Below, one piece after another: positions 2 to 28,665 of a DNA stretch of 28,665 bases. The stretch is from Histomonas meleagridis 2922-C6/04-290x (Eukaryota > Protista > Parabasalia). Each line of letters begins with the position of its first letter. The stretch's first letter is position 1. The notes below the pieces were generated by a model. It searched no databases. It saw only the letters and a list, made by a program, of their open reading frames with translations, and was not told where the DNA came from. Made by a program: the position numbers and the translations under genes. The DNA is taken from positions 1 through 28,665 of the forward strand of contig JAANOX010000215.1 of NCBI GenBank assembly GCA_020184695.1. Direction: 5' to 3'.

Positions 2-265
2 TGTTTTATTTCCTTCGGTCCTTCTTCCAATAATTATTTTCTTTAGCTTTTGTTTCGCAACGTTTTCTGATGTATAACTTACTTTAACATAATCATTCAC
101 TGCGTCATAATCTTTAAACATAAATACTTCAGGTGTTGAATCACATACTAAAAAACATTTCTTTAAATCATTTATTGCTTCATCTCCGTTTAAATCATAG
201 TTTTTATTTTTTCTAATGTCCATTAAACAGAATTTGTCGTTTATGTCGATTGTAACTTCTGACAT
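2..265 (-). CDS. 5' part of a Maverick-associated ORF running off the window (MSEVTIDINDKFCLMDIRKNK...DSTPEVFMFKDYDAV...); possibly primase/helicase-linked
   Basis: Manually translated: 88 open codons from ATG at 265 to the window edge, pointing into the element. The product call rests on recalled resemblance to trichomonad Maverick proteins only. Confidence 0.5.
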   Translation of the reverse strand, partial: MSEVTIDINDKFCLMDIRKNKNYDLNGDEAINDLKKCFLVCDSTPEVFMFKDYDAVNDYVKVSYTSENVAKQKLKKIIIGRRTEGNKT

Positions 266-317: not shown

Positions 318-425
318 TATAACCTGTAACGTAACGTAACCTTGGTTTTTGCATCTCATGTTCTTTATTCTTCTTCTTTTTTCCAAAATGTCAAAGTTAC
401 AGGTAACGTTACGTTACAAGTTATA
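318..425. repeat. 25-bp inverted repeat of TAAC(G/C) pentamers (318-342 / 401-425)
   Basis: TATAACCTGTAACGTAACGTAACCT vs the reverse complement of AGGTAACGTTACGTTACAAGTTATA: 2 mismatches in 25, 58-bp spacer. Confidence 0.85.
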
Positions 426-1559
426 GTTAGATTTTTCGCACATGCTTATTTTAAACTCGACCGTTAATCCTAATTTTCAATCATCCTCTATCGTTAATGC
501 TTTCTTTTATGTAGCGCGGCTTGAAGCGAGCGTATCACGCGAAGCTTCAATAGCGCTGTGTGTGTGTGTGTAAAATTTATATGCGAAGCAATTGATATTA
601 TTGATCAATTTATATGATATTAATTAAGTCAAAAATGAATTTTAATGTAACATTGATATAAAATTTGTGTTGTAATACAAAGACGATTAAATATTTTACG
701 ATATTCTAATTCTTAATCGTGATTTAGTTTAATATATAATGATTGTTTCTTTTGATTCATTTTAATTAATTCAATGTATGCAATATAAGCTTACTACTTC
801 GAATCAAACATGGCGAAAATTGTAAATCATTCAAAATGAAATCTAATGAAAATTTCTTTAGAAAACAAATTGAGAGTATATTTTTGAATGCAAATTACAC
901 CTTATTCATAGTCTGCATATTGATTGAATGGGGCCTCCACTATTTGAATACTACCTATTATAAATTACCCATTGTTGTAGAACAGTACCGAAAGTGTCTA
1001 CGCCATCTAACTAACTTATAGTTACTGTAAAAAATGGCATACTGCGTAAAAAGTGGCAAACTCAATTCAAATATTCAAAAATCTACAAACTGACAATTAA
1101 ACAATAAACATTGGCAGTTACAATTCAAATATATGTACAAAAATAGAAGTCAATTTAATTACTAACATTATAGTAAAAAAACTTTTATTCACGATTTTTT
1201 TCACACTCTATATGACACATTGAAGCAATATTTCTTGCAATATTATGATGGATTTTCGAATTCGTCAAATATTCTGATGCCAAATTACATGCTGAAAGCA
1301 AATCAGGGTGAATTCCCATTGACTTGCATGTAATAGGTGAAGGTCTTGCCAAACAATTCGATTTTCTCCTCAAAATTTTCTTGTGGATTTATTTCATAAT
1401 TATTATTTTCTATTATTTCTTCTTCTAATGAATACGATAGTTTTCTATCCGATATGGTTTATATTTTTGCAATAAAAAATGTTGTAAAATCAGAAAAATA
1501 ATTCATTAAGGCATCTATCATTAAAGTTAAACGTGAAAAGATTTCATTAAATTTCGACA

Positions 1560-10032: not shown

Positions 10033-10519
10033 TCCTAAAAAAATAATCGAAAATATCAGTCATAGTTTTGAGGTTTTTGATAATATTCAAATTATATGTT
10101 TTATTTCAATTAAGAGGGTGCTTGTTTCTGTTGTTGTAGACGGAAAAGATTCGAAATTATTTAATTCCTGTGTAAAATATTCAAAAAGTGGAAATTAAGC
10201 AGTTAAATGGTCGGGGGTTACCGATAAAGCAAAGTGGCAAAATAATATGAATTTTTGCTGTTTACCAGATGGACAGAAAAGATTCGAAATTATTCAATTT
10301 TCGTAAATAAACTATTCAAAATAATTTAAATGTATATTTGGTCTCTTTATCGATGGCAAAAGTGTCAATGAATTTGATGTGTCTACCATCTGGACAGATA
10401 ACATTCGAAATTATTCAATTTCGGTATAAAGTATTGAAAAATAAAAATAAATCGAAATTCACATCAAAATTTTAATAAATTGAAAATATTTCAATATCAA
10501 TAATAAATAAATTATACAA

Positions 10520-10525
10520 TCATTT
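10520..10525 (+). promoter_or_regulatory. Trichomonad-type initiator (Inr) TCATTT
   Basis: Lies 6 nt before the ATG at 10532 and matches the TCA(T/C)T(T/A) Inr consensus. Short motif in AT-rich DNA, so chance occurrence is possible. Confidence 0.45.
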
Positions 10526-10531
10526 TTAAAA

Positions 10532-11176
10532 ATGAAAGCTGGAAGAAAAGCAATGCAATTTGATACTGATTGGCTCATTCAAACTGCCGTTGACATCGAA
10601 AACGGAGTTACGACATTAATGGAAGCCTCCAAAAATGCCAAAATAGTACAAAAGGACAGGTCAGGGTTCACGCGCATAAGGACACAAATTGTTAGCCCAG
10701 GAGCTATTAAAAGAGGTTTTGAAAAACTGGGGCTAAAAGTCGATTTTCGAAGAGGAAGAAGAGAGACCGTTATCTTGGAGCAGTTTAGAGGAACGATACT
10801 ATCGGTGCAAAAAGAATCGGGAATGGGAGCAACCAAAATTTATGAACAACTCGTTGCAAAAGCTCCCAATAACCAATTATTCAAAAAGATTACTCATAAT
10901 ATGGTATATAAGACCTTAAAGAGTAATTCTCTTTTGAAATATACAAAACCGAGTCAAGTTCCTCAAAAACAACGGTGCCGATACGAAGCCGATAACCCCG
11001 ATTTAATATGGCATACGGACCTTCACCACTTTGATGGTCAATATCTTATAGCATTTATTGATGACTATTCAAGGTATGTTGTTCATCATGAATTGATTCC
11101 AGCTGGTAGACACATCAAATTCATTGACACTTTTGCCATCGATAAAGAGACCAAATATACATTTAAATTATTTTGA
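10532..11176 (+). pseudogene. IS481-family DDE transposase, C-terminally truncated
   Basis: HTH (MGATKIYEQL) and RYEADNPDLIWHTDLHHFDGQYLIAFIDDYSRYVV (rve D1). The native sequence stops at ~11098; the last ~25 codons come from an inverted copy of non-coding subterminal DNA. Confidence 0.85.
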
Positions 11177-11426
11177 ATAGTTTATTTACGAAAATTGAAT
11201 AATTTCGAATCTTTTCTGTCCATCTGGTAAACGACAAAGAAACAAAATTCACATTGTATGCATATACAGCCAAACCAGGCCTTGTCAATTCAAATACGAG
11301 AAACCATTTATGTATTCAATTAGACTTTTCGAATACTTTACACAGAAATTGAATAATTTCGAATGTTTTCCGTCCATAACAGGGTGCTTGTTTCTGTCAA
11401 GCACACGGTGCTGCAAACAATTTCTC

Positions 11427-15855: not shown

Positions 15856-17140
15856 TAGCCGGGGGAAAAAGTGCGTTCGTCAGCCTTTTTTTCAATGAAT
15901 AAAAAAGTAAAAGAAAATTCGTTTATTTATTATGCTATGTATTCACCTTGAGTTTCAATTGTAATCAAAAGTCTGTTCATCCATTCATTATATACGGCTC
16001 TGCAGGTGTCTTTAGAAATACTATACAGTAATGTTTCAACCTTTTGAAAAAGTTGATCTTCATTTTCAAACTCCTCACCTTCGAGCATTTTTTTTTAGAT
16101 ATCCGAACAGAAAAAAGTCAGACGGTGCGAGATCTGGCGAAAATGGGGGTTGCGGAGACCTTTTAATGCCCAATTCATTCAATTTTTCATGAACCAAATG
16201 AGGTCGGGAGTTATCCATATGCAAAAAATACCCCTTAGTTGAAATTTTTTTTGCCAAATCTCAAAGTACAACTTCAGATATAAAATTTCGATTAAATTTT
16301 TGACCTATTGGGAGCATTATCATTGATTTGATACCAGTTATAGACCATATAACAGATATCATTACTTTTTTGGAGGCAATGATTTGTTTGGGTTTGTTTG
16401 GTTTTTGCACTCCGGATTCAATTCACATCGAGTTTCTCCCGTTCACAAAATAAATCCAGGTTTCATCTTGCGTCAATATGTGCCTCAGCCTGTGGTCATT
16501 TGAACTAGAAAGGAATTCAAATAATTTAGAAGCAATGGCGGCTTTTTTGGCTTTAATTTCTGGAGTCGACTTATGTGGGATCCATTTGAAGTTATTTTTT
16601 TCATTTCTAAAATATTAATCATTATATTTTTCACTGTTTTTGGATCCGCACCTACATTCTTCGCAATTTTCTTCGTCGATGCATATGGATAACTTAATAT
16701 AAAATTGGTTATTTTTTGATCTAAATCTGATCTTCTTGGTCTCCCTGTTTTTTTTGATTCGAAAATTGAGAAGGTATGTTCATTCATTTTTTTTGTTAAT
16801 TTTTGAACTGTTCGAAGTGTGATAATATTATAACCATATACAGCACATAATCGTCTATATATGTCTTGATTTTCATTTGATTCTAACCAAAGGAAATGGA
16901 TTGACAACATAACGTAATTCCTTAATTCAAACTGACATAAGAATGATTAAACGTTCTTTTTCAAAGGGTATTCTGAAAAAAAGTTGTTTTACTTCATGCA
17001 TCATATTTATTTGGAAAAAAGTATCATTATTATAAAAATGATAATATATTTATTATAAATTTTATTTATATAATCTGATTTTATTAATATCTAATATAAA
17101 TCAATAGAAGGGTTGACGAACGGACTTTTTCCACCCCCTA
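15856..17140 (-). mobile_element. mariner element, 1285 bp, degenerate TIRs, TA TSD
   Basis: TAGCCGGGGGAAAAAGTGCGTTCGTCAGCC vs right-end reverse complement TAGGGGGTGGAAAAAGTCCGTTCGTCAACC; TA flanks. Boundary could shift by 2 bp in the TA run. Confidence 0.85.
15930..16938 (-). pseudogene. mariner transposase with DD31D spacing, frameshifted
   Basis: GRPRR, FKWIPH, LTQDETW, HMDNSRPH and FSPDLAPSDFFLFG, C-terminal GEYIA*; 31 residues between D2 and D3. Confidence 0.85.
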
Positions 17141-17142
17141 TA

Positions 17143-17460
17143 CGTTTGGATCACACAATTCATCAACACCATTCATGACAAAACCTTTTTTCTCAGTATG
17201 TTTCATTATTTCAACAGAATCTATTGTTGCAATTTTGGTTTCATAGAATACAACATGCATGGAAAAATAATTTTTGTCATCAGGAATTAGTCTAAATATA
17301 TATATTTCCATTTCTTTATCATTACAATATCCTCCATATGAATATTATCCCAATATATTTTTTAGTTGTTCAATCCATTTATACACTTCAAGAAATTCAT
17401 CTTCTGTTTTTATACTATCAAAATCAAAATACAAATGAAACTATTTTTCATTAATTAATA
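17143..17460 (-). pseudogene. Archaeo-eukaryotic primase (AEP)-like fragment, probably Maverick-derived
   Basis: Manual translation: FHLYFDFD (motif I) ... YFSMHVVFY (motif II) ... LCDPNV (motif III region); two in-frame stops; cut by the mariner at 17140. Confidence 0.6.
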
Positions 17461-17761: not shown

Positions 17762-18851
17762 TGAGGTGTCCCACATTACCGTAGAATTCCAATGAATAAA
17801 CAATATTAAAATAATTTTTAATTATCATTTTATTCAGTGTGAAAATATTCACCATTGTGCTCAATTATCCAGTTGCATCTTATCTCCAATTATTTAGAAA
17901 CTTGGATCAAAGTTTCGTTTGAAATTTGAGCTAAAATTTAAATTACTGCTTCAAAAAGATTTTCTGGGGTATCGAACGAATGCTATTTAAGCTTTTCTTT
18001 TGCATACCCAAATAAGAATAAGTCGGATGGGGCAATATCTGGGAAATAAAGTGGGTGTGTAGTTATTTCATATGGTAATTTGTTGATGAAAGTTTTCGTA
18101 CGTCGAGAATTGTGTACTTTACAATTATCGAGATGGAGTTATATTTTATGTTTTTCCCTACTAGAACTCATTTTCCAGAAAATTGATACTTATATAATAT
18201 CGACGATTGATCCCCTGTTATAAGGTTACTAAAAGAATTGTGCTTGCATAAATTGATTATGCTTAAAAGTTTTGGATTCTCACATTTTTTTGATCAATAT
18301 TTGAAAAGTGGGGTAGCCAACGTGTATACCTATATACTAGCTTAAGATGTACTGTCATGTAGCGATGAATTGTAAATTTGGGTGCTCTAAGAACTGATGC
18401 AATACTTCGTATTGATGAAAGAGGCTCATCTTCTAAAATTTGCTGAATTATTAATAAAAGTTGTTCGTCTATGGTATTTTTAGCTTCTTCTGAATCGAGA
18501 CGACGATTTGCAAGTGGGAGATTGAACTTCGCTTCTTTCATCCATTTATATATTGTGGATGACATGTAGGCACTCTCACCAAACTTTATTTTAGATATGT
18601 CCGAAATATGTTGATGATTGCACCCTTGTTTGTAAAGATTACTGATTATATCCTTTTGACCCATATTATTTTTGACCCCTAACGGTCGTCGTACGAAATT
18701 TGAAAACACATTGTCTCAATAGATTATAAAAATCATGATATAATATTTACAGCATTTGAGAGATAATATATTAAAGAATTATTTGGAATAACGCGATTTC
18801 ACTAATTTTTTATATATGCATCGAGATTCTATGGAAAAGTGGGACACCCTA
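17762..18851 (-). mobile_element. mariner deletion derivative, 1090 bp, TA TSD (transposase remnant 17830-18664)
   Basis: TGAGGTGTCCCACATTACCGTAGAAT vs right-end reverse complement TAGGGTGTCCCACTTTTCCATAGAAT; HTH, RWLPH, TGDQS, SPDIAPSDLFLFG, NGEYFH; middle of DDE missing. Confidence 0.85.
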
Positions 18852-18974
18852 TACATTAATATGTCATACATTAATATGTCATACATTAATATGTTATACA
18901 TTAATATGTTATACATTAATATGTTATACATTAATATGTTATACATTAATATGTTATACATTAATATGTTATAC
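18851..18974. repeat. 15-bp minisatellite (ATACATTAATATGTY) x8
   Basis: 2 copies ending in C, then 6 ending in T; directly abuts the mariner TIR. Confidence 0.95.
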
Positions 18975-19059
18975 ACAACATTAGACATGAAATATGTTAT
19001 GCATAGATTAATATATCATATTAAATGAATGAATGTAATTAAAAATCACTAAATTTTTA

Positions 19060-19450
19060 ATGATTAATTCTTGCTTATTCTTGTTTATTCATTGTTTATT
19101 CATAGTTTGTTCTTGATTTTTCATTGATTATTCTCATCTAGTTATGTTTATTCGCATTTATTCATTATTTGTTCTTTCTTATATATTCTATATCCATGCT
19201 TATTAATTTGTTTGTTTATGCTTATTTTCATTTATTTTTGTTTGTTCTTGTTTATTCTTCTTCGGTTATTCTTTGTAATTGTTGAAATCAGAATAAATGA
19301 TAAATAAATGATAATAAACAAGAACAAACAAGAATTATTCAAGAAAATAAACAAGAATAAGCAAGAATAAATATGAATGAATTAAAAAAACAAACAAGAA
19401 TAAATGATGAACAAACAATGAGCAAACAAAAATCGAACAATGAAATAACA
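19060..19450. repeat. Low-complexity imperfect foldback (TTCTTGTTTA-like arm, then AATAAACAAGAA-like arm)
   Basis: Sharp strand-bias switch at ~19285; perfect 22-bp inverted match 19068-19089 / 19346-19367. Confidence 0.6.
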
Positions 19451-19961
19451 AGAATTCTATTAATTGCAATATTATATTATATTGAATTTACTAATATATA
19501 ATATTACAACATAATATTCATTTTTTGTTGATTAGAGTGAATAGTATATCAAGATATTTTAATTATGATTCATAATAAATGGAATCGTATGCATTCAGAA
19601 TTTGAGCATTATATTTTCGAAGAAAACTTTAGTATTTACGTGTTTCCGGACTGTTAGGATGCCAGGCCGTTCAAAAAGTGGAAAATTGAGGCGATAACCG
19701 CAAAAAGTGCGTACAAATAACGTATTCTACGTTCATTCATGATTATACTAATAATAATTCCATTAATGCTTCAATTGGGTCTGATTTATTCTGAAAATAA
19801 TCTTTTGATTTATTCGTCAAGTGGTAATAGTATGTTCAGTCAGCATGTTTTCCAATCCAATTTTCCGCTGATTTCAATAAATTCATGTTCAACTTTGAAT
19901 TTTTCAAGTTCATCTACAATAAATCCTTCGTTATTTAATAATAAGAAATCTCCCTCCGAAA

Positions 19962-23996: not shown

Positions 23997-24192
23997 ACAC
24001 ACACACACACACAGCGCTATGTGAGCTTCGTGCTACGCACTCGCTCCCACTCGCGCTACATAAACTAAAGGATGAACGGCTAAAATCGATTGAATTCTCA
24101 TAAATCGGTTGGTTTTGATTGAAAGTAATAAAATATATTTAAATTCATGATGACATTTATATTTAAAATGTGTGAGGCATTAATCCGGCTGA

Positions 24193-24920
24193 GTTGTTGT
24201 TAATACTATGTGGATTTTAGTGTTTTGTTGTTAATCCTATGTGGATTTTAGTGTTTGGAGCTTAAAGTTTTATATGCTACTTAACAACCTAACCTAACTT
24301 AACTTAACCTATCATTAAAAATTCGAGAAAGCCTTTTCGTAAAAGTCCATATATTTTTGAGGTTGAATTCTAACTTGATGACTTGACGTGAATTTTACAT
24401 GTTTACTGCTGCTAACTATAAGTTCACGGAAAAGTTGCTGTTAATTCTATGTCGAAAGTTGTGTTTTGATGTTAATCCTATGTGGAAAGTTGTGTTTGGA
24501 GCTTAAAGTTTTATATGCTACTTAACAACCTAACCTAACTTAACTTAACCTACCATTAAAAATTCGAGAAAGCCTTTTCGTAAAAGTCCATATATTTTTG
24601 AGGTTGAATTCTAACTTGATGACTTGACGTGAATTTTACATGTTTACTGCTGCTAACTATAAGTTCACGGAAAAGTTGCTGTTAATTCTATGTCGAAAGT
24701 TGTGTTTTGATGTTAATCCTATGTGGAAAGTTGTGTGTTGTTGTTAAAATATTTCTACTGCTACTTAACAACCTAACCTAACTTAACTTAACCTACCATT
24801 AAAAATTCGAGAAAGCCTTTTCGTAAAAGTCCATATATTTTTGAGGTTGAATTCTAACTTGATGATATGACGTGAATTTTACATGTTTACTGCTGCTGAT
24901 GATGATTAATTGACGGAAAA
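24193..24920. repeat. Three tandem copies of a ~241-bp unit (starts 24193, 24434, 24675)
   Basis: Period 241 read directly. Each unit has two ~32-bp subrepeats and a TAACAACCTAACCTAACTTAACTTAACCTA pentamer tract. Confidence 0.95.
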
Positions 24921-25045: not shown

Positions 25046-25754
25046 ATGTGTGATAAGTTAGTTCCACTTACTGCAACAACAACTCTTGAAAATTACGTTT
25101 ACGTTTACGGCAAAAGTTTAATGAAATGTACTATTAATGATTGTCCGATTGAGGTTTTCAAACCACAATCAAATTATTATAATTCTTTGTTGTGGAACAT
25201 AGAGCATTTCGAAAGCGTTATTAAACACAGTGAAGAAAAATTAAAACTATTCGACAAAGAAGCAATTGAAACTTACGTTAATGAAAATTTTGATGATTCA
25301 TATGATACTTTAGATCATAAAATCGAAAAGAAATTAAAACAATACGACGCTATTATCGGAAAATATGAATTAGATAAAGATGATTTAGAAGATATTGAAA
25401 ATTTAAAGAACATGCAAAAGAACCTTCCCGAAATAATTGAAGATAGATTAATAAATAAATATTATCGTGAGAATCACATATACAAAGAAATGGAACAAGA
25501 ACTCCAAGAGCAAATAGTAGTTTACGATCGATTAGCTCACCAACAAAAAAATTTACATTGGTTGAATGGAAAGAAAAAAATGTTTACAGAGAGAGCAAAA
25601 AGAAGAAAGAAAAAAATTGATTGAGTTTTTGTCGATTCCTCATTCAAACAAAGATGTTATAAGAAATCTTAATGAATTTGTTCATGAATTTGTCAATAAG
25701 AATTATACGGAATTGTTGGACGAAAACTATGACATGTATAAAAAAATGCTTTGA
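25046..25754 (+). CDS. Hypothetical coiled-coil-rich Maverick accessory protein, probably one gene frameshifted near 25570
   Basis: Overlapping ORFs 25046-25624 and 25566-25754 with A-rich runs at the junction; no recognisable family. Confidence 0.5.
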
Positions 25755-25976
25755 TGAAATCAGCCGAAACAAATACGAAAAAAACTATACGAAATGTATT
25801 TGACACTAAGTCATCACAAAAAAAGTAATTAAAGCGTTTACCGAACACAATCAAACTTTAATTAATAGATTACAATTTCTAATCGCAAAAAAATACAATT
25901 TAATGAAACAGAAGAGTATTTAACAATTGAACAATATTTAAAGAAATCATTTGAAAAATTTATTTCTGATCATTTT

Positions 25977-26423
25977 ATGACCATTTATAATTTTATGAAA
26001 AACTCCATCGGTTCAATAGCTAAAAGTTCAATAACATTTGAAAATTCAACTGCAATAAAAGTTTATGCTCAGTCAATCGTAAGAGATATAAATCAAATTT
26101 TAATTAGAGACTTACCGGAAGTATTAGAAAGTAGATTTTCCGATTATATTCAAACGTTAATGGAGAATTTAGGAATTAATACAGAAGAGAAACAAGAAGT
26201 AAAAACAAAAGTTCAGAGTATTGAATTAAGTTTTGATTCATTTCTTGCTTCAGTTCCTGACGGAGAATTAGAGATTGGTGAATTGTGTGATATGTATAAT
26301 AATTACTTCGGAACAGATTTAACAACAAGAAGCTTTTCATTATTGAAAGTCGTTAAAGAACACTTTAATAAAAGATCAACCGTTAGAAACAAGAAGAAAA
26401 TCACATACTATGCAAAATGCTGA
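25977..26423 (+). CDS. Hypothetical Maverick accessory protein (148 aa), possible C-terminal winged-helix-like DNA-binding domain
   Basis: Intact ORF with Inr TCATTT at 25970-25975 just upstream. Domain call is an inference from the segment VPDGELEIGELCDMYNNYFG...RSFSLLK. Confidence 0.6.
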   Translation: MTIYNFMKNSIGSIAKSSITFENSTAIKVYAQSIVRDINQILIRDLPEVLESRFSDYIQTLMENLGINTEEKQEVKTKVQSIELSFDSFLASVPDGELEIGELCDMYNNYFGTDLTTRSFSLLKVVKEHFNKRSTVRNKKKITYYAKC

Positions 26424-26430
26424 ATTTCAT

Positions 26431-26486
26431 AAAAGGCTTTCTCGAATTTTTTTTGTTAGGTTAAGTTAAGTTAGGTTAGGTTGTTA
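26431..26486. repeat. Inverted copy of the pentamer tract + AAAAATTCGAGAAAGCCTTTT motif of the 241-bp unit
   Basis: Reverse complement matches 24282-24337 with a perfect 30-bp pentamer tract; sits between two convergent stop codons. Confidence 0.9.
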
Positions 26487-26513
26487 GGTTTACTTCTAAA
26501 ATATTCTTCGGTC

Positions 26514-27698
26514 TTAAGACCTCAATGCTTCGAAGAAGCTTTTTTCAATTTCTGACTGTTTATGAGGAGTATTACCGCGGAGAAATGAAGCAGGAATTTC
26601 ATCTTGATATGAACGTTGCCCAGGAACGGTAAAAAGTACTTTATACTTATTCGTTTTAGGGTTAAATGACAAAATTGACTCAACAGAACCAACCCATTTA
26701 CCAGGAATAGTTGACGAGGCCTTTGTGCTCCATTCATTTAATATTATTTGGTTTATTCTTACCAATCGGTATTAGTTTGTATCTTGGTTTAGTAATTACT
26801 GTTCCGTCTTGAGCAATTAAAACGTACATATTTCCTTTCCGTTCATCAATTTTATAACATTCACGACTTATTTGAAATCTTTTTAGTTATGCCATTATGA
26901 CGCGGTAATATATAGCGTACAAAAAGAGCCAACAGGAAGAATTAAATTCTTAATACATTTTTTTGTTTTTTTCAGAAGATTCTAAACATTTAAATATATA
27001 TTCTTTTTTTATATTTTTTTTATCAGACATTTCTTTTGTAGAATAACCGTTTGCTCCATGGTAAGTATTATTATAAATATTTAGAAACTTTTTTTCATTC
27101 TTTCTGGAGTAATAAATGTGTATTTTTTTCATCATGTGATTGATGTTTAGATTTTTTTCCGTTGGAGTATTCATATCTCTTATTGTTCGCATGAATCTAT
27201 CAATAATGCCTAAAGACGAATGGTTTTTTTGTCTGATATAGTATGAACGGCAACTTTATTTTTTTAGAAAGAAGTTTTTAAATTATTCTTTTCAATAAAT
27301 GCTGGTTCTTCATCTGACGTTAATTTTACCGGATGGAATTTGACAATGAATTGGTTTTAATGTTTCATGAACAGCAGACGCTGATTTTGACATTAACGGC
27401 AGACAATAAACATATCTATTATTTGTGCCAATAAACACGTGCCAATAACGAGGATTTTTATTTTTTCCATTATCATATAAATCATGAAACCAACAATTTG
27501 GAATAGTTGAAAATATTTTTATCATATAAGGTTTTATATCTTTTTTGTTTTAATAAATTTATCCTTCAATCTCCTTGATATTACTTTTTTAATTTTCTTT
27601 TCACTAACATTTGGAAATTTATTTTGCACGTGTTTTTTAACGTGACTGTAAGTTTTAAAATGTGTTTTGTCAATTTCTTTATTGATGTTTTGACTCAT
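26514..27698 (-). pseudogene. Maverick retroviral-like integrase with C-terminal chromodomain, frameshifted
   Basis: WFHDLYD (D1), KLTSDEEPAF (D2), HSSLGIIDRFMRTIRD, YNNTYH, then VESILSFNPKTNKYKVLF...QDEIPASFLR (chromo-like). Frameshifts fall mostly at A runs. Confidence 0.85.
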
Positions 27699-27734
27699 TT
27701 AAGAGTTATTAAAACGTTTTTTTAATTATATTAA

Positions 27735-28198
27735 ATGGGATTAGGTCGTATATTCGGTGGAATAAGAAAATTTATTCAAAATGCAGGACGACTTGTAAGA
27801 AATGTTATTGATAAAGGAAAGAGAATTTACGGTAAGGTCTCGCCAATAATCAGTCGAGGAATTGAATTTGGTAAAAAGATTCCAGGAATAATTGATACAG
27901 TAAGAAAGCGTAAAGGAGATATAACAGATAAAAAAGATAAAATAGTTGATGCAGTTCCTGACGGTAAGATTAAAGACAAAAATTAAACGAGCCGTAGATA
28001 AAAGGCAAAGAAGTAGCCGAACGTGTTTTAGACACAGGTAAAAAGATTTCGGATAAAACTCAACCGTGGATTCAAGCAGGCGATAAATTTAAACAATGGA
28101 TCGAACACGAACAAAATTTAGGTAAGCAACAAAGATATCAAATGAAACCTGCGGTAATGAAACCTCAACCAAGAGTAATGATTCCTGGATTAATGTGA
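27735..28198 (+). CDS. Adenovirus pVI-like membrane-lytic/virion protein of Maverick; frameshifted near 27985-28005
   Basis: N-terminal basic amphipathic helix MGLGRIFGGIRKFIQNAGRLVRNVIDKGKRIYGKV. Coding continues in other frames (DKGKEVAERVLDTGKK...PGLM*). Confidence 0.55.
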
Positions 28199-28236
28199 TT
28201 CATTAAATGATTTTTTGATTTTTTTATATTTAATAA

Positions 28237-28557
28237 ATGGCAGAGAACGAGACTGAACGGCTCTACGAGCCTGAGCTCCTTCGGAGCGAAACAGAAATTG
28301 TTTTGGATGATGAAAACGAAAATGTGAATGAAGAAAAAACTTCGGATGTTAAGATAACAAAGAAAGCAGTCTCGCCGAGGCTCGATCCTTCCAAAAGGTC
28401 GGTAAAAGATTTAACACAAGAAGAAAAAGAAATTATAATTGCTAATGCTAAAAAAGGAATTGAAAATGAATTTTTTGACGTCAAATTTTTCAAGAACGGT
28501 AACGCTAGAGTTACAGCAAAGAAATCAAAAACTCCAACGGTTAGTCAAAAAAAGTAA
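28237..28557 (+). CDS. Hypothetical Maverick protein; probably continues past a frameshift
   Basis: ORF with acidic N-terminus and DLTQEEKEIIIANAKKGIENEFFDVKFFKNG; ends in an A run. Confidence 0.55.
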   Translation: MAENETERLYEPELLRSETEIVLDDENENVNEEKTSDVKITKKAVSPRLDPSKRSVKDLTQEEKEIIIANAKKGIENEFFDVKFFKNGNARVTAKKSKTPTVSQKK

Positions 28558-28665
28558 TTAAAAAAACAACAACTACGGTAAAGTTTATTTATCAAACGAT
28601 CAATTATTAATGGAGCATAAAATTTAAGTAAATTCACGATTAGATAAATAAACAAGTAAGCATAA

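Follow-up and report, generated by a model that had tools for sequence, protein, structure and literature searches.

The DNA analysed (the window, 28,665 nucleotides from the parabasalid Histomonas meleagridis) holds the outward-facing, multi-copy ends of two Maverick/Polinton-type elements, here called E1 (512-571) and E2 (23997-24058), together with the genes and repeats that follow them inward (Table 1). Both elements are cut off by the window edges, and the interior of E1 lies beyond the window. The two sequences that the first-pass annotation reported at 500..571 and 23997-24066 are both present there, and the gapless alignment it described, read toward the terminus, is borne out over a 47-nt core. 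The core contains 13 differences (9 among its 32 paired positions and 4 among its 15 unpaired ones), and homology between the two ends extends no further than ~80 nt inward from the terminus. The termini themselves are (AC)7A at E1 and (AC)8A at E2, so that a short-repeat end motif is present.

Table 1. Coordinates of the features at the two element ends
Feature	Position	Strand	Remarks
SF3 helicase of E1, D5/VapE-like	2..265	-	N-terminal part of ~460-aa gene; points away from the end
E1 subterminal inverted repeat	318..425	.	318-342 / 401-425, 92%; GTAAC pentamers
13 nt identical between E1 and E2	506..518	+	from sequence comparison
E1 three-tier hairpin	513..557	+	basal 513-517/553-557; outer 521-527/544-550; inner 530-533/537-540; loop 534-536; internal loop GA (528-529) opposite GAA (541-543)
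(GT)7 3′ tail of E1	558..571	+	T(GT)n end motif when T557 is included; this is the element's right end, its body leaves the window leftward
(AC)8 terminus of E2	23997..24012	+	left end, element leaves the window rightward; depth step
E2 three-tier hairpin	24013..24057	-	basal 24057-24053/24017-24013; outer 24049-24043/24026-24020, with one G.A; inner 24040-24037/24033-24030; GTA loop 24036-24034; GA 24042-24041 opposite GAA 24029-24027
E2 subterminal array, 241-bp x 2.9	24192..24897	+	runs of (C/T)TAAC pentamers; at 26431-26489 a partial copy, inverted
rve-type integrase of E2	26514..27698	-	broken into four reading-frame pieces
Two further conserved genes of E2	27717..28648	+	gene order as on L045-L048

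Since their flanks differ, E1 and E2 are separate insertions, and their derivation from a single one is ruled out. A single element over 512-24058 is likewise ruled out: the repeat tails point toward the middle region, where remnants of several transposon types (mariner, pogo, MULE-like, IS481-like) are mixed. A Helitron end is rejected too, as there is no CTRR end and integrase-type genes are present. Either E1 and E2 come from two families, or a single family has unequal ends of which these are the two. Both ends are multi-copy. In run X1 the summed contig depth is ~19-44 on the flank and climbs into the thousands within the E2 end, and 484 contigs in X1 and 1169 in X3 lie over the 501 bp of that end, though such depths and counts are not copy numbers and the best of these runs may stem from the source of the window itself. 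Two gut runs with small shares (X5, X9) covered 3 of 30 bins and carry no weight. For 181 bp at E1 there are 38-125 contigs per run, again not a copy number. Within the middle region, a decayed fragment at 17120-17437 (minus strand) has 44% identity to the N-terminal (primase-like) part of the primase-helicase of contig L044 and is thus a third Maverick remnant. There is also an array of 15-bp x 8.4 at 18850-18975, after which a long imperfect palindrome of 10-bp units occupies 19055-19455. At 10254-11238 is a small element in which 141-bp inverted repeats (98%) surround an ORF with a weak rve match; it resembles the eukaryotic IS481-like transposons (PMC10045372).

The earlier assignment of the termini to Mavericks is upheld by homologues of the integrase and SF3 helicase, by a capsid gene on related contigs and by the end motif, (AC)3A//T(GT)3 being among the published ones, which are 5′-(AGT)2, (AG)3 and (AC)3A (PMC8097293). 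The helicase ORF of E1, ~250 bp from the hairpin, has 12 homologues among 89 candidates, with up to 74% identity; full-length homologues carry PF19263 and PF05272, and the E1 protein has no primase part. The E2 integrase has 49 homologues among 96 candidates, most of them with PF00665. The first of the two genes beyond it encodes an amphipathic, putatively protein VI-like product, and the second is an unnamed ORF. Between the E2 array and the integrase (25046-26423) are two ORFs, of 192 and 148 aa, with no Pfam match; for the second, at 25977-26420, there was no homologue among 14 candidates. No double jelly-roll capsid gene lies in the window, at whose edges both elements are cut off. Runs of NTAAC pentamers occur in both subterminal regions, as an inverted pair at E1 (318-425) and at E2 in 24279-24337, 24520-24578, 24763-24821 and 26431-26489, where they lie inside the 241-bp array and between convergent genes. 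A run of this kind also closes a Maverick contig of pPolB type (L077:10007-10041). The runs are candidates for iterons, or for terminator or promoter sites, common to families.

The closest relatives are four near-identical gut-metagenome contigs of 3.5-9.6 kb (L045-L048) with integrase, capsid and SF3 helicase genes. On three of them (L045, L046, L048) homologues of the E2 integrase and its following genes, and of the E1 helicase, stand on one molecule. A 542-aa gene on the same three belongs to a family predicted to be a double jelly-roll capsid: a model of the L145 member (pLDDT 76.8), which is 58% identical to the L046 protein, has the mavirus capsid as its best match (E 2.5e-14), while the capsid candidate folded from a single sequence reached a pLDDT of only 28.5. 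A GC-richer hairpin follows the helicase stop codon on L045-L048. Many further protist Maverick contigs (L044, L050, L070-L188) are to be found in G001, a genome bin filed as a bacterium, in which the matches were 14 pPolB, 12 integrase and 7 helicase. One integrase cluster includes a protein of Tritrichomonas musculus, an indication that the host is a parabasalid.

There was no pPolB match in the window or in L045-L048, L050, L101 and L145, all of them incomplete. On contigs of G001 the capsid, integrase and helicase families of L045-L048 adjoin pPolB: L075 has the E1-type helicase family beside it, L077 has a related integrase and capsid with it, and L081 has it with related genes. For the putative packaging ATPases of L101 and L077, so labelled by motif, no counterpart was found in the window or on the incomplete contigs L045-L048. 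On L044 and L101 the E1-type helicase has a long N-terminal extension, which presumably holds an AEP-like motif.

The hairpin has three tiers. The first-pass annotation had seen two stems flanked by TAGCGC direct repeats; the repeats are there, but they are not merely repeats, as the hexamers pair with one another to form a 5-bp basal stem, the third tier, overlooked before. The T that precedes (GT)n is the outermost paired base of this stem, and beyond it, at the foot of the hairpin, lies a free 3′ tail, (GT)7-8, of 14 nt in E1 and 16 nt in E2, for which neither pairing nor fold-back was found in the 8 best folds of either end. The internal loop had been called invariant; it is GA opposite GAA in both E1 and E2, though in a third end type, described below, its left side is AA, so that what is kept is a loop of purines only. 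Tandem sheared G.A pairs are a typical stabiliser of DNA. The claim that both hairpins are of the very stable GNA type stands in part. The E2 loop is GTA, and a GNA cap is present in three of the four end types listed; in E1, the only one with GCGAAGC, the GAA of that motif is in the internal loop and the apical loop is ATC.

The strand ending 3′ in (GT)n is the better folder of the two under both DNA and RNA parameters, and the purine loop and GNA caps are exclusive to it. Its z-scores are -3.09 (E1) and -2.59 (E2), against -2.78 and -2.09 for the complementary strand, and the corresponding DNA energies are -14.6 vs -13.6 kcal/mol for E1 and -13.2 vs -9.3 kcal/mol for E2. The four best-folding of 11,448 sampled 47-nt segments are all at the E1 and E2 sites, partly because the GC content there is 57-62% and that of the window 29%. 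A motif search gave 2 matches in the window and none in 100 shuffled versions. With RNA parameters the basal stem gains 5 pairs, four of them G.U/U.G, between the tail and conserved bases upstream of the stem (fold energies -24.5 and -24.1 kcal/mol); these upstream bases are the 5′ part of the 13-nt identity, and only under these parameters could the stem grow through such wobbles with the tail. Positions 400-700, compared with 4227 Rfam families, gave one chance match (E 4.8) and no known RNA family. Because the genes beside both ends point away from them, the fold is not an mRNA 3′ hairpin of its neighbours, and a terminator for those genes is ruled out.

The central observation is how E1 and E2 differ within the stems. 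Four compensatory pair swaps, two in the 4-bp stem and two in the 7-bp stem, and one G.A in E2 had been claimed, and the count holds. When the minimum-energy fold is taken from E1 alone it has 16 pairs, of which E2 keeps 15; four are double-changed, the remaining one has turned into G.A, and no G.T or G.U is found among the changed pairs. Sliding the partners by 1-3 columns lowers pairing from 97% to 16-53%. A null in which 9 substitutions fall at random on the two variable stems (22 positions) produced 4 compensatory pairs in 136 of 1,000,000 trials, and it concerns two sequences only; the co-location of the changes by itself has p=0.015. A two-row shuffle gave 32/500, which is its floor (~1/16), and formal covariation is not established from two rows. 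Conservation of the fold between E1 and E2 beyond chance is nevertheless real. The evidence comes from one organism, with two full and two partial ends.

The partial ends are types 3 and 4, which were read by eye among the loose-end rows listed for public contigs. Type 3, a loose end behind 519, is present in three of the four runs (X1, X2, X4) and in both samples, and is in gapless register with E1 and E2. All its visible pairs in the variable stems are Watson-Crick (6/6 outer and 4/4 inner, thus 10/10), the apical loop is GCA and the internal loop is AA opposite GAA. Its third outer pair is T-A where E1 has G-C and E2 G.A, a fifth double change, by which E2 looks intermediate; with type 3 counted, double changes affect 5 of the 11 variable-stem pairs. 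Type 4, a loose end before 24052, comes from 3 contigs of X3 with a median of 17 letters. Its left arm is as in type 3, its inner stem is GAA-capped like E1's and there are three purines (GAA) on the left, but the matching outer right arm is absent from the 30 letters shown and the outer stem is not restored. It is either a result against the conserved fold or another fold.

Double changes of this kind could also be produced by copying of one arm onto the other through template switching in a quasi-palindrome, and the region would then matter only as a duplex site (for integrase, initiator or packaging) or not at all. The enzymes that copy element ends are strand-displacing, and the arms of inverted repeats correct each other. 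In keeping with such copying, the changes come in blocks, with the stems holding most of the core differences (9/13), and type 4 may be a rearranged product. Yet neither the 2x3 loop nor the 3x2 basal loop would be expected to survive arm-to-arm copying, and both are kept in E1, E2 and type 3; nor does such copying sit well with the G.A of E2 left uncorrected, with fixed lengths, or with loops that are purine-only on one strand. Overall it is an unlikely explanation. The earlier claim of a conserved fold gains from E1, E2 and type 3 and loses from type 4; selection rather than arm-to-arm copying is likely, though unproven.

A second alternative, less likely again, is that the lineage does without protein priming, and that the hairpin is either recognised by a primase-helicase or folds back to act as a primer. 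The proximity of the E1 helicase gene to the hairpin is consistent with this, as are the extended helicases of L044 and L101, with their putative AEP-like motif, and the lack of pPolB on the four closest contigs, each of 3.5-9.6 kb and incomplete. For other elements, inverted repeats have been proposed to be an origin recognised by an adjacent primase-helicase, in an end-module hypothesis (PMC11296320). Counting against it are the association of the (AC)nA end type with protein priming (PMC8097293), the pPolB beside the same helicase family on L075 and beside a related integrase and capsid on L077, the incompleteness of the close contigs, and the absence of a primase part from the E1 helicase.

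Retroviral-type integrases and A32-like ATPases work on duplex ends. This tells against a role of the fold in excision, integration, end protection or packaging instead of initiation, though its location is where integrase and packaging proteins must act. Mavericks have been modelled as excised ssDNA (PMC4046053) and compact purine loops are nuclease-resistant (PMC5449611); as the only explanation such a role is quite improbable, and it is compatible with the preferred one. That the fold functions as RNA, or that it is extruded as an N4-like promoter hairpin at the element end, is equally improbable: the basal stem is longer under RNA parameters and T. vaginalis Mavericks yield many small RNAs (PMC7845603), but Rfam has no match, the adjacent genes face away, the changed pairs include no G.U, and both 3-nt GNA loops (PMC5449611) and the tandem sheared G.A pairs mentioned above typically stabilise DNA.

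Several known ends offer a comparison. In the archetypal telomeres of Streptomyces (Tap/Tpg), where priming is by a terminal protein, short palindromic hairpins with GNA loops form on the 3′ overhangs, and this 3′-terminal strand is a model of how the E1/E2 fold might work (PMC5449611). The likeness is one of structure; those telomeres spread seven palindromes across ~180 nt, lack both a simple repeat tail and a family B polymerase, and serve end patching rather than strand displacement of a whole genome. E1 and E2 have one nested hairpin only, and no Tap/Tpg family was found among 30 window ORFs scanned in Pfam. The left-end hairpin of the parvovirus MVM has, like E1 and E2, a GA doublet opposite a GAA triplet in the terminal hairpin of a small DNA replicon (PMC1185569). 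There, however, the hairpin itself primes synthesis, and the bubble is a spacer that acts after copying into duplex, which the HUH protein NS1 nicks; E1 and E2 have a free (GT)n tail beyond the stem and no fold-back, and no HUH family was found among the window ORFs scanned. The GA/GAA likeness is most likely convergence. As neither Tap/Tpg nor HUH genes are among the ORFs scanned and the tail is not folded back, the fold belongs to neither the Streptomyces nor the parvovirus type of telomere.

To our knowledge the protein-primed origins of adenoviruses and tectiviruses are read as duplex or panhandle, with no local hairpin. Like E1 and E2 they end in a short repeat, suited to initiation by slide-back or jumping-back (PMC8097293). 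In the end module of PLVs the gene of a primase-helicase adjoins the terminal repeat, as the helicase gene does here, but the recombinase is of the tyrosine type, not an rve integrase, and no structure is described in the available text (PMC11296320). With Maverick/Polinton termini (PMC8097293) there is agreement in the (AC)nA//T(GT)n end, the rve integrase, the double jelly-roll capsid in relatives and the multi-copy state; the differences are the longer repeat of E1 and E2 (7-8 units) and the conserved fold directly inside it. The fold is best placed as a structural variant of such termini, with pPolB unproven for the lineage.

Searches for it elsewhere gave no termini from other hosts in IMG/VR, the JGI metagenomes or G001. 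IMG/VR had no match to the structured end pattern, 43 to a loose pattern (all 43 unrelated and without a (TG)n end) and one, unrelated, in a further end search, and it held no relatives of the E1 helicase or E2 integrase. The end pattern had no match in the JGI metagenomes, where 4 of 420 candidate stretches are real relatives, none extending to a terminus; from prokaryote genomes 1 of 39 candidates is real (L044, in G001). In G001, no terminus was found on the 120 contigs C21-C140, in whose 589,206 bases a shape descriptor matched 7 AT-rich sites (8 rows) without an adjoining (TG)n; (AC)5 is absent across all of G001 and the E1 end has no real match there. A subterminal fold like that of E1 and E2 is not described in the available text of the literature searched on Maverick, Polinton and virophage ends, nor in that of PMC8502044, PMC6431247, PMC3511435 and bioRxiv 10.1101/2022.05.25.493380. 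The three-tier Maverick end fold is apparently undescribed.

What remains is the reading to which about an even chance is given, that the end hairpin may be an ssDNA origin or recognition fold on the template strand, a signal for starting DNA synthesis. The (GT)n strand is the template for initiation at its end. On this proposal the end-facing strand would become single, as a displaced strand, an excised single-stranded copy (the Maverick ssDNA-intermediate model has excision as ssDNA; PMC4046053) or a melted end, whereupon the basal stem would form, its outermost pair exactly at the T preceding (GT)n, and the tail of 14-16 nt would be left free. The initiation complex, by analogy with other Mavericks, would be terminal protein-pPolB, possibly helped by the SF3 helicase. 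It would read shape, namely the 2x3 purine loop with its sheared G.A pairs and the short capped stem, and synthesis would start on the (GT)n tail with slide-back; in published work end repeats are expected to allow jumping-back when replication is protein-primed (PMC8097293), and slide-back on the repeat would account for 7 units at one end and 8 at the other. The compact purine loops would also shield the end from nucleases. Several observations count against this reading: the ends number two full and two partial ones from a single organism, type 4 does not restore the outer stem in the letters shown, the E1 loop is non-GNA, E2 tolerates a G.A in a multi-copy family, the window and L045-L048 gave no pPolB match, and the searches above gave no terminus from another host. 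A more specific version is doubtful: the origin of parabasalid Mavericks would be a single-stranded telomere in folded form, in which a GNA-capped hairpin with an MVM-like GA/GAA bubble offers the (GT)n tail to the initiator.

In some parabasalids about a third of the genome consists of Mavericks (PMC10120064). Maverick exit and the start of replication have been modelled (ssDNA intermediate, panhandle, jumping-back), with no cis-acting origin in the available text of the literature searched. The 45-nt fold with its tail, in four natural end types, provides ready substrates for binding and initiation by pPolB or helicase, and the end signal also helps in calling intact Maverick termini. If the telomere-origin proposal were true, no cis-acting origin structure would have been defined for a Maverick before this one, each end could initiate without panhandle pairing between the TIRs, and the lineage may replicate with an SF3 helicase and without a pPolB of its own.
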